Below, piece by piece: positions 28,039 through 28,665 of a stretch of DNA of 64,000 nucleotides. The translations under genes were made by a program, and so were the position numbers. Within the stretch, counting starts at the first letter, position 1; the number at the start of each line of letters is the position of its first letter. The stretch is from Escherichia coli (lineage in GTDB: Bacteria; Pseudomonadota; Gammaproteobacteria; Enterobacterales; Enterobacteriaceae): assembly GCF_003334335.1 (NCBI RefSeq), contig NZ_QOWQ01000003.1. The stretch is one strand, 5' to 3'. A model generated the notes under the pieces. It saw only the letters and a list, made by a program, of their open reading frames with translations. It had not been told where the DNA came from and did not search any database.

Positions 28039-28665
28039 TCACACAGTAATATCTTTCCACTCGATAATTTTTAACGCCCCTGTTGGGCAGGCGTTTGCGC
28101 ATTCACCGCATAACACACATTTCGAGGATTTTTTACTTTCGGTATTTACGGTGGCCATCATCCACGGGCATGCCGTAGTACAGGCGCTACAGCCAATACA
28201 GCGTTTATGATCGACGGTAATACAGCCTTCTTTCTGCTGCCAGGTAATCGCACCAATCGGGCAGACGTTCATGCATTGCGGCTCTTTGCATTGACGGCAG
28301 GTGTCCGCGGTATAGTTGAGATCGCCATACAGGCCGCCGCCAGAGCCAACCCCGTTGTCGCCAAAGAAATAATTGCGATGGATTTTGATACGGGAGAAGA
28401 ATGTCCCTACTGAGCCATCGTTGAAGTTGGTACAAGAGATTTCACAGCGGTGGCAACCCGTGCATCGCGCTCGCTGGGTCACCAGCACCCCTTTGGGGGT
28501 ATTTATCAACCCTACTGTGCCGCTATCAATATCTTCCTGTTTGCAACCCAAAAGTGACAGTAACGCAGGGGCAATTGTTAGACCAGCAAGGCCTTTTCCT
28601 TATATACGCAAGAATTCTAATCGCGTTAAGCCAATATCTAATAGTGGACGATCAACCGGGTTCAT
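28039..28665 (-). pseudogene. ydhY: ydhY ferredoxin-like subunit, reading frame interrupted by in-frame TAA at codon 22
   Basis: SD GAGGA + ATG at 28665 gives MNPVDRPLLDIGLTRLEFLRI, then TAA (plus strand TTA 28600-28602), then the same frame continues GKGLAGLTIAPALLSLLGCKQ... through four Cys clusters to stop at 28039. ORF track finds only the 170-aa remnant from TTG at 28551. Confidence 0.55.

Follow-up and report, generated by a model that had tools for sequence, protein, structure and literature searches.

The ydhYVWXUT operon is located on the minus strand of the stretch of Escherichia coli DNA analysed here (64,000 nucleotides, hereafter the window). The features of the locus are collected in Table 1. 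Translation of 28039-28665 on the minus strand gives MNPVDRPLLDIGLTRLEFLRI*GKGLAGLTIAPALLSLLGCKQ..., that is, 208 codons and a terminal stop, with four ferredoxin-type cysteine clusters. The frame remains open past the TAA through the whole rest of the protein, and a frame check of the rest of ydhY found no further lesions. The initial annotation had placed a Shine-Dalgarno (SD) sequence, an ATG, an in-frame TAA, a terminal stop and a 208-codon frame in this region. All of them were recovered by minus-strand reading and translation. It had also described the remnant in the ORF track as beginning at TTG, in agreement with the ORF listing (170 aa from TTG 28551). This 170-aa remnant is what gene callers report in the sister assemblies too.

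Table 1 Features of the ydhY locus and of the downstream operon
Feature	Position	Strand	Remarks
FNR-type palindrome TTGAT-N4-ATCAA, perfect	28866..28879	.	5' of ydhY
Shine-Dalgarno GAGGA of ydhY	28676..28680	-	10 nt 5' of ATG; anti-SD duplex -5.8 kcal/mol
ydhY pseudogene	28039..28665	-	208-codon frame broken at codon 22; otherwise small 4x[4Fe-4S] ferredoxin-like (WorS-type) subunit
ydhY start ATG	28665-28663	-	minus-strand reading
21 codons still read from the authentic start, MNPVDRPLLDIGLTRLEFLRI	28603..28665	-	n-region of Tat-like signal only
Premature ochre stop TAA, codon 22	28600..28602	-	plus-strand TTA; alignment with MG1655
Mechanical remnant ORF, 170 aa, start TTG codon 39	28039..28551	-	without SD (+1.2 kcal/mol)
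Candidate internal restart	28480..28494	-	SD-like AAAGGGG (28494-28488), 5-nt spacer, in-frame GTG codon 62 (28482-28480)
ydhY terminal stop TGA	28041-28039	-	minus-strand reading
ydhV, aldehyde ferredoxin oxidoreductase (WorL)	25916..28018	-	intact; G262S private; NF007354 1372 bits
ydhW	25265-25903	-	intact frame; coordinates from collinear CM2010-0578/1 annotation
ydhX	24533-25201	-	intact frame; coordinates from collinear CM2010-0578/1 annotation
ydhU/phsC	23751-24536	-	intact frame; coordinates from collinear CM2010-0578/1 annotation
ydhT	22935-23747	-	intact frame; coordinates from collinear CM2010-0578/1 annotation

With the TAA read as Ser, the conceptual YdhY scores 436.7 bits against the NCBIfam equivalog NF007382 (cutoff 213), with residues 1-208 of 208 covered, a match that speaks for the identity of the gene and not for a protein being made. 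Pfam search of the same conceptual protein revealed Fer4_11, Fer4_7, Fer4_10 and Fer4 (4Fe-4S dicluster domains). Four clusters of the CxxCxxCxxxC type, as in the YdhY family, are present in the translation. As in the family, the gene lies directly 5' of ydhV, and the window is collinear with MG1655 and CM2010-0578/1. The full-length frame of the family is interrupted here by the in-frame TAA at codon 22. Judged from its sequence, the locus is a pseudogene of the YdhY family and not a functional member. In the 2026 classification of tungsten/molybdenum oxidoreductases, YdhV and YdhY are WorL and WorS, respectively, of the E. coli Class V enzyme (PMC13328260).

Residues 1-40 of YdhY, including Ser22, are conserved in the Citrobacter orthologues (...GLTRLEFLRISGKGLAGLTIAPALLSL[L/F]GCKQED...). 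This conservation identifies the annotated ATG as the true start and the 5' part as genuine coding sequence. The TAA is located within the conserved Tat-like signal/anchor segment. At the N-terminus of YdhY (residues 14-41; 28546-28665, minus strand), a Tat-like motif has Arg-Leu where the twin arginine would stand (TRLEFLR) and the hydrophobic stretch ends in a lipobox-like LLGC. TRLEFLR and the lipobox-like features are conserved in Citrobacter, where the latter reads LFGC.

Alignment with MG1655 identifies the causal change as a G>T at plus-strand position 28601, which turns TCA (Ser22) into TAA on the coding strand. Over the 141 aligned bases around codon 22, TCA versus TAA is the sole difference between MG1655 and the window. 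The other 207 of the 208 codons of ydhY are the same as in the wild-type gene. Thus, the stop stands where intact orthologues have a sense codon (TCA in MG1655, Ser in Citrobacter), as defines a nonsense pseudogene. The proposal that a single substitution from TAA restores the frame holds for the reference codon TCA. MG1655 is not a case of the same TAA with a start further downstream. The view that the first ferredoxin subunit is truncated is supported by this comparison.

The allele is rare. Of 5,426 complete E. coli genomes, 5,403 gave a match to a 761-base query comprising the gene and its promoter, and in 5,394 of these the match extended over 80% or more of the query. The best matches, among them MG1655, C600, J53, ATCC 8739 and E. 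coli C, all reached 99.9% identity, with one mismatch each. No match at 100% was found among the matches to complete E. coli genomes. With a 61-mer centred on codon 22, 5,394 of 5,397 complete genomes differed from the window and only 3 matched exactly. A sense codon is thus present at codon 22 in ~99.9% of E. coli genomes. The alignment to MG1655 and to other E. coli genomes that the initial annotation had called for returned TCA in the reference and a rare 61-mer in the species.

With regard to background and INDEPENDENCE, identity of the window is 99.98% both with MG1655 (10 mismatches in 43.5 kb) and with CM2010-0578/1 (12 mismatches in 49 kb). At most of the sites where it departs from MG1655 polymorphically, it matches E. 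coli C or CM2010-0578/1. A K-12 strain with a laboratory mutation was rejected as the source of the window, which differs from MG1655 at the polymorphic sites 14498, 19346, 37583, 8534 and 10170 and also has an indel in the sodB-ydhP spacer. In this spacer, the alignment with MG1655 breaks at 10174-10234, and the window has 234 nt versus 161 nt in K-12, ~73 bp more. The longer spacer is common to E. coli C and CM2010-0578/1 and probably reflects copy-number variation of a repeat element. No IS elements and no pseudogenes other than ydhY were found in the window. This, together with the E. coli label on every accession of the private alleles, speaks against Shigella as the source.

Fourteen SNPs of the window are private with respect to MG1655, E. 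coli C and CM2010-0578/1 (positions 131, 476, 3168, 3256, 4995, 9680, 10113, 19528, 27235, 28601, 33748, 35501, 51400 and 52392). Three are intergenic, 2 synonymous, 8 missense and 1 nonsense. Nine of the 11 coding changes alter a protein: lhr T19P, sodB G63V, ydhQ T263I, ydhV G262S, ydhY S22*, sufS D322Y, sufD G160D, ydiO T6N and ydiO M337V. G:C pairs are the site of 12 of the 14 changes (6 G:C>A:T and 6 G:C>T:A). Planted or uniform random noise is an unlikely source of these SNPs, given this concentration at G:C pairs and the recurrence of the alleles in public assemblies. The ratio of non-synonymous to synonymous changes is 9:2 among the private SNPs versus 0:4 between the reference strains (Fisher p = 0.011). 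The private non-synonymous fraction, 82%, is near the 74% expected without selection, so that the ydhY stop looks like one product of a recent unselected burst in the clone. Such a burst of recent unselected mutation, suggested by these counts, may have come from a mutator episode, bottlenecks or mutagenesis, for example.

Exact-sequence look-up of the private YdhV-G262S protein found it in the Logan assemblies SRR1815430 and SRR10357301 and in GCA_012531195.1, the SRR1815430 contig being common to 4 samples. Three loci from different runs or assemblies (L010, L011 and L012) are identical to the window at the DNA level (100% over 6-8 kb), TAA included. These sister loci also share the neighbouring private SNP at 27235. 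The TAA is therefore reproduced in independent data. The private alleles SufS D322Y, SodB G63V and YdiO T6N/M337V were found on 3-6 contigs each, all labelled Escherichia coli, and with accession series in common (HAH28537xx, HAH90178xx, OWD620xx and MGA654xxxx). The independent assemblies and the recurring private alleles argue that the stop is a fixed natural allele and not a read or assembly error. The clone in which the ydhY stop is fixed is a small natural one that was sequenced on several occasions.

The three exact carriers of the 61-mer among the complete genomes are SCU-308 (NZ_CP053281.1), isolate 58 (NZ_OW968011.1) and 1335KP (NZ_CM173848.1). In the corresponding loci (L002, L003 and L004), the 61-mer is found at 20001-20061. 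With 378 mismatches in 38 kb between them and the window, membership of the window in the SCU-308 carrier lineage was rejected. The strains come from the USA (SCU-308), Spain (isolate 58) and the Czech Republic (1335KP). No difference separates isolate 58 from 1335KP over 40 kb, and SCU-308 is set apart by an indel. The nearest SNPs that distinguish the carriers from the window lie 103 bp (28498) and 199 bp (28800) from the TAA, which limits a shared tract to ~300 bp or less. Either the allele arose twice or it moved in a patch of at most 300 bp; the data do not favour one over the other. There are 82 possible single-base changes that create a nonsense codon in ydhY, 24 of them G:C>T:A. A second, independent hit at the very same base would thus have a chance of roughly 1-4%, which is mildly notable.

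Other lesions of ydhY were also encountered. Among ten contigs with a called 170-aa remnant, 4 carry wild-type genes with a mis-called start and 6 carry different 5' lesions. In SRR7749052 (L017) and SRR7748717 (L022), 1 bp is deleted from an A4 run at codons 23-24 (locus position ~1455). Here the same short segment of ydhY, directly after codon 22, was inactivated in a further independent event. In ERR13361745 (L015), a deletion between two ATATCAGG direct repeats removed the SD, the ATG and codons 1-21. The copies of this 8-bp repeat are located at 28711-28718, 5' of the SD, and at 28598-28605, over codons 21-23 (both minus strand); the second copy reads ATATAAGG in the window. Single-base indels in 5' ydhY come from three long-read or metagenome assemblies and may be errors. 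IS1 adjoins ydhY in strain C9 (NZ_CP010129.1) and in one further locus (L021). In HS30-1 (NZ_CP029492.1), the annotation shows no more of ydhV than an N-terminal-domain fragment.

In the window, ydhY alone is broken among the genes of the operon, as seen by frame check. The palindrome 5' of ydhY is the only match to the FNR-type pattern in the 64 kb, where 0.11 are expected by chance, and is a putative FNR site. The promoter region is the same as in MG1655, the one differing base of the 761-base region being in codon 22. Control of the ydhYVWXUT operon by FNR, NarL and sigma-S is documented (PMC3141248), the FNR regulation being attributed to Partridge et al. 2008, as cited in PMC3141248, and the operon is described as regulated by FNR, NarL and NarP (PMC13328260; PMC3141248). 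ydhV has its own SD (AAGGA), with its ATG 20 nt after the ydhY stop, and its private change G262S corresponds to plus-strand position 27235. Transcription of the intact ydhVWXUT genes would thus still start at the unchanged FNR-type promoter, with translation of ydhV from its own ribosome-binding site. No promoter-like site was found between the TAA and ydhV. Consequently, the downstream genes depend on transcription through ~580 nt of untranslated RNA. A scan for Rho-dependent termination revealed a modest C-rich, G-poor stretch (C/G 1.6-1.7) at ~28446-28356, which is suggestive and short of decisive. A lowering of downstream expression by Rho-dependent polarity is plausible.

We consider it very likely that the stop is a genuine ochre mutation, fixed in a natural E. 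coli clone of small size, which makes ydhY a pseudogene. A single G:C>T:A transversion changes Ser22 (TCA) into TAA. Translation from the authentic start would end after 21 residues, inside the signal/anchor, and the full-length exported or membrane-associated YdhY would not be made. YdhY is the Fe-S electron-transfer subunit that goes with the YdhV pterin oxidoreductase, and the YdhV/YdhY module is expected to be non-functional without its small subunit. The lack of further lesions in ydhY fits a recent event; a remnant that selection still preserves would show the same pattern.

The question of a restart after the stop bears on this interpretation. The initial annotation had held that no SD-supported restart follows the TAA, and this has to be revised: GTG62 has AAAGGGG at 5 nt, with a predicted anti-SD pairing of -7.9 kcal/mol versus -5.8 at the annotated start. 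Only 3 of the 389 internal in-frame start codons in the other genes of the window pair as strongly. The product would have 147 aa and keep all four cysteine clusters. It would be devoid of the export/anchor segment, and the beginning of the domain's first strand would be missing as well. The AAAGGGG-N5-GTG arrangement is present in wild-type ydhY too, as either an unrecognised internal start or a chance occurrence. The TAA mutation itself creates TAAGGA, but the one start codon at a fitting distance from it is a TTG in another frame, which encodes three residues. Given GTG62, there is a low probability that the S22* allele may not be a complete null.

The mutation could then relocalise YdhY instead of abolishing it. 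Reinitiation at GTG62 (or at TTG39) would yield a signal-less cytoplasmic Fe-S protein with some function, and the allele may even be selected, which would account for its occurrence in two lineages. The pairing at GTG62, stronger than that of the native SD and rare among internal starts, is consistent with this idea, as is the retention of the four clusters in the product. So are the identical TAA in a second lineage and a remnant without further lesions in either lineage, where only two synonymous differences are observed. However, the region contains ~8 candidate internal starts, so that a strong SD among them by chance alone would not be unusual (roughly 6%). GTG62 would also remove the start of the first beta-strand before cluster one (the DmsB and NrfC alignments begin at residues 60-64), and the product would be made without the part that targets the complex to periplasm or membrane. 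The two clones that carry the allele are of very recent origin, which makes the lack of further decay uninformative. Finally, the frameshifts and the deletion that break 5' ydhY in other lineages fit plain decay better than a selected allele. We therefore regard relocalisation as improbable. A more specific version, in which S22* was selected in two unrelated lineages, export or anchoring being lost and GTG62 giving a cytoplasmic four-cluster ferredoxin, with the electron carrier rewired and not destroyed, appears somewhat less probable again. In the literature on selection for loss of ydhY, only a large multi-gene deletion and expression changes were found.

If the TAA were decoded as sense, through suppression, recoding or programmed readthrough, full-length YdhY would still be made. 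The uninterrupted frame through the whole protein after the stop is compatible with this, but after any recent nonsense mutation the frame 3' of the stop should still be open. The stop is UAA, whereas selenocysteine and pyrrolysine use UGA and UAG, respectively. UAA followed by G is an efficient termination context in E. coli, and the base after the TAA of ydhY is G. The stop is not conserved among orthologues: it occurs in only 3 of 5,397 complete genomes and in the clone of the window, and the sense codon in ~99.9% of E. coli genomes suggests no conserved recoding signal. A tRNA scan of the 64-kb window revealed only two tRNAs, both wild-type tRNA-Val(GAC), and no cognate suppressor; the stop itself is not of a recodable type. 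Recoding and suppression were thus rejected on codon type, lack of conservation and the tRNA scan of the 64-kb window, and we hold this reading to be very improbable. An ochre suppressor encoded elsewhere in the genome, outside the 64-kb window, is possible.

A sequencing or assembly error in the source record would be in line with a single-base difference in an otherwise near-identical background, with the G>T type typical of oxidative damage and with the unusual excess of private non-synonymous G:C>T:A and G:C>A:T changes, but it was ruled out, leaving a negligible probability, by the exact-protein look-up that led to three loci from different read sets or assemblies with identical DNA (TAA and SNP 27235 included), by the recurrence of the private alleles on several contigs and accession series and by the presence of the allele in three finished genomes that belong to another lineage. 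Three causes had been put forward initially for the stop. The strain-specific nonsense mutation is retained, whereas sequencing error and recoding fall in view of the independent assemblies, the codon type, the conservation of the sense codon and the pseudogene label that PGAP gives to the identical allele.

The fixed ochre mutation is an ordinary nonsense mutation, and the identical allele is already annotated as a pseudogene in RefSeq. Two aspects are mildly unusual, namely that a second lineage carries the identical base change and that non-synonymous changes are in excess among the private SNPs of the clone. In this clone, ydhY should be labelled a pseudogene, and the YdhV/YdhY oxidoreductase is probably non-functional; the import beyond annotation is little. 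Natural ydhY knock-outs could serve as ready-made material for the study of the role of the ydh operon. Sporadic inactivation of ydhY appears as a recurrent event in E. coli, despite the match of the region in nearly all complete genomes. A near-universal gene whose 5' end is sporadically disrupted by several lesions would fit a conditionally dispensable function.

Comparison with wild-type YdhY (b1674, WP_001070230.1) reveals the same locus, promoter, SD, four cysteine clusters and ydhV neighbour as in the window. The difference lies in codon 22, where the stop bars the full-length protein under standard decoding. SCU-308, isolate 58 and 1335KP resemble the window in the TCA>TAA change at codon 22 and in their intact ydhVWXUT genes, but have a different background (99.0% identity). 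In these three genomes, ydhY is annotated by NCBI PGAP as a pseudogene with an 'internal stop'. The other sporadic 5' lesions also lead to loss of the N-terminal part and to the calling of a 170-aa remnant. Their mechanisms (indel, deletion, IS1) are unlike the nonsense change observed in the window.
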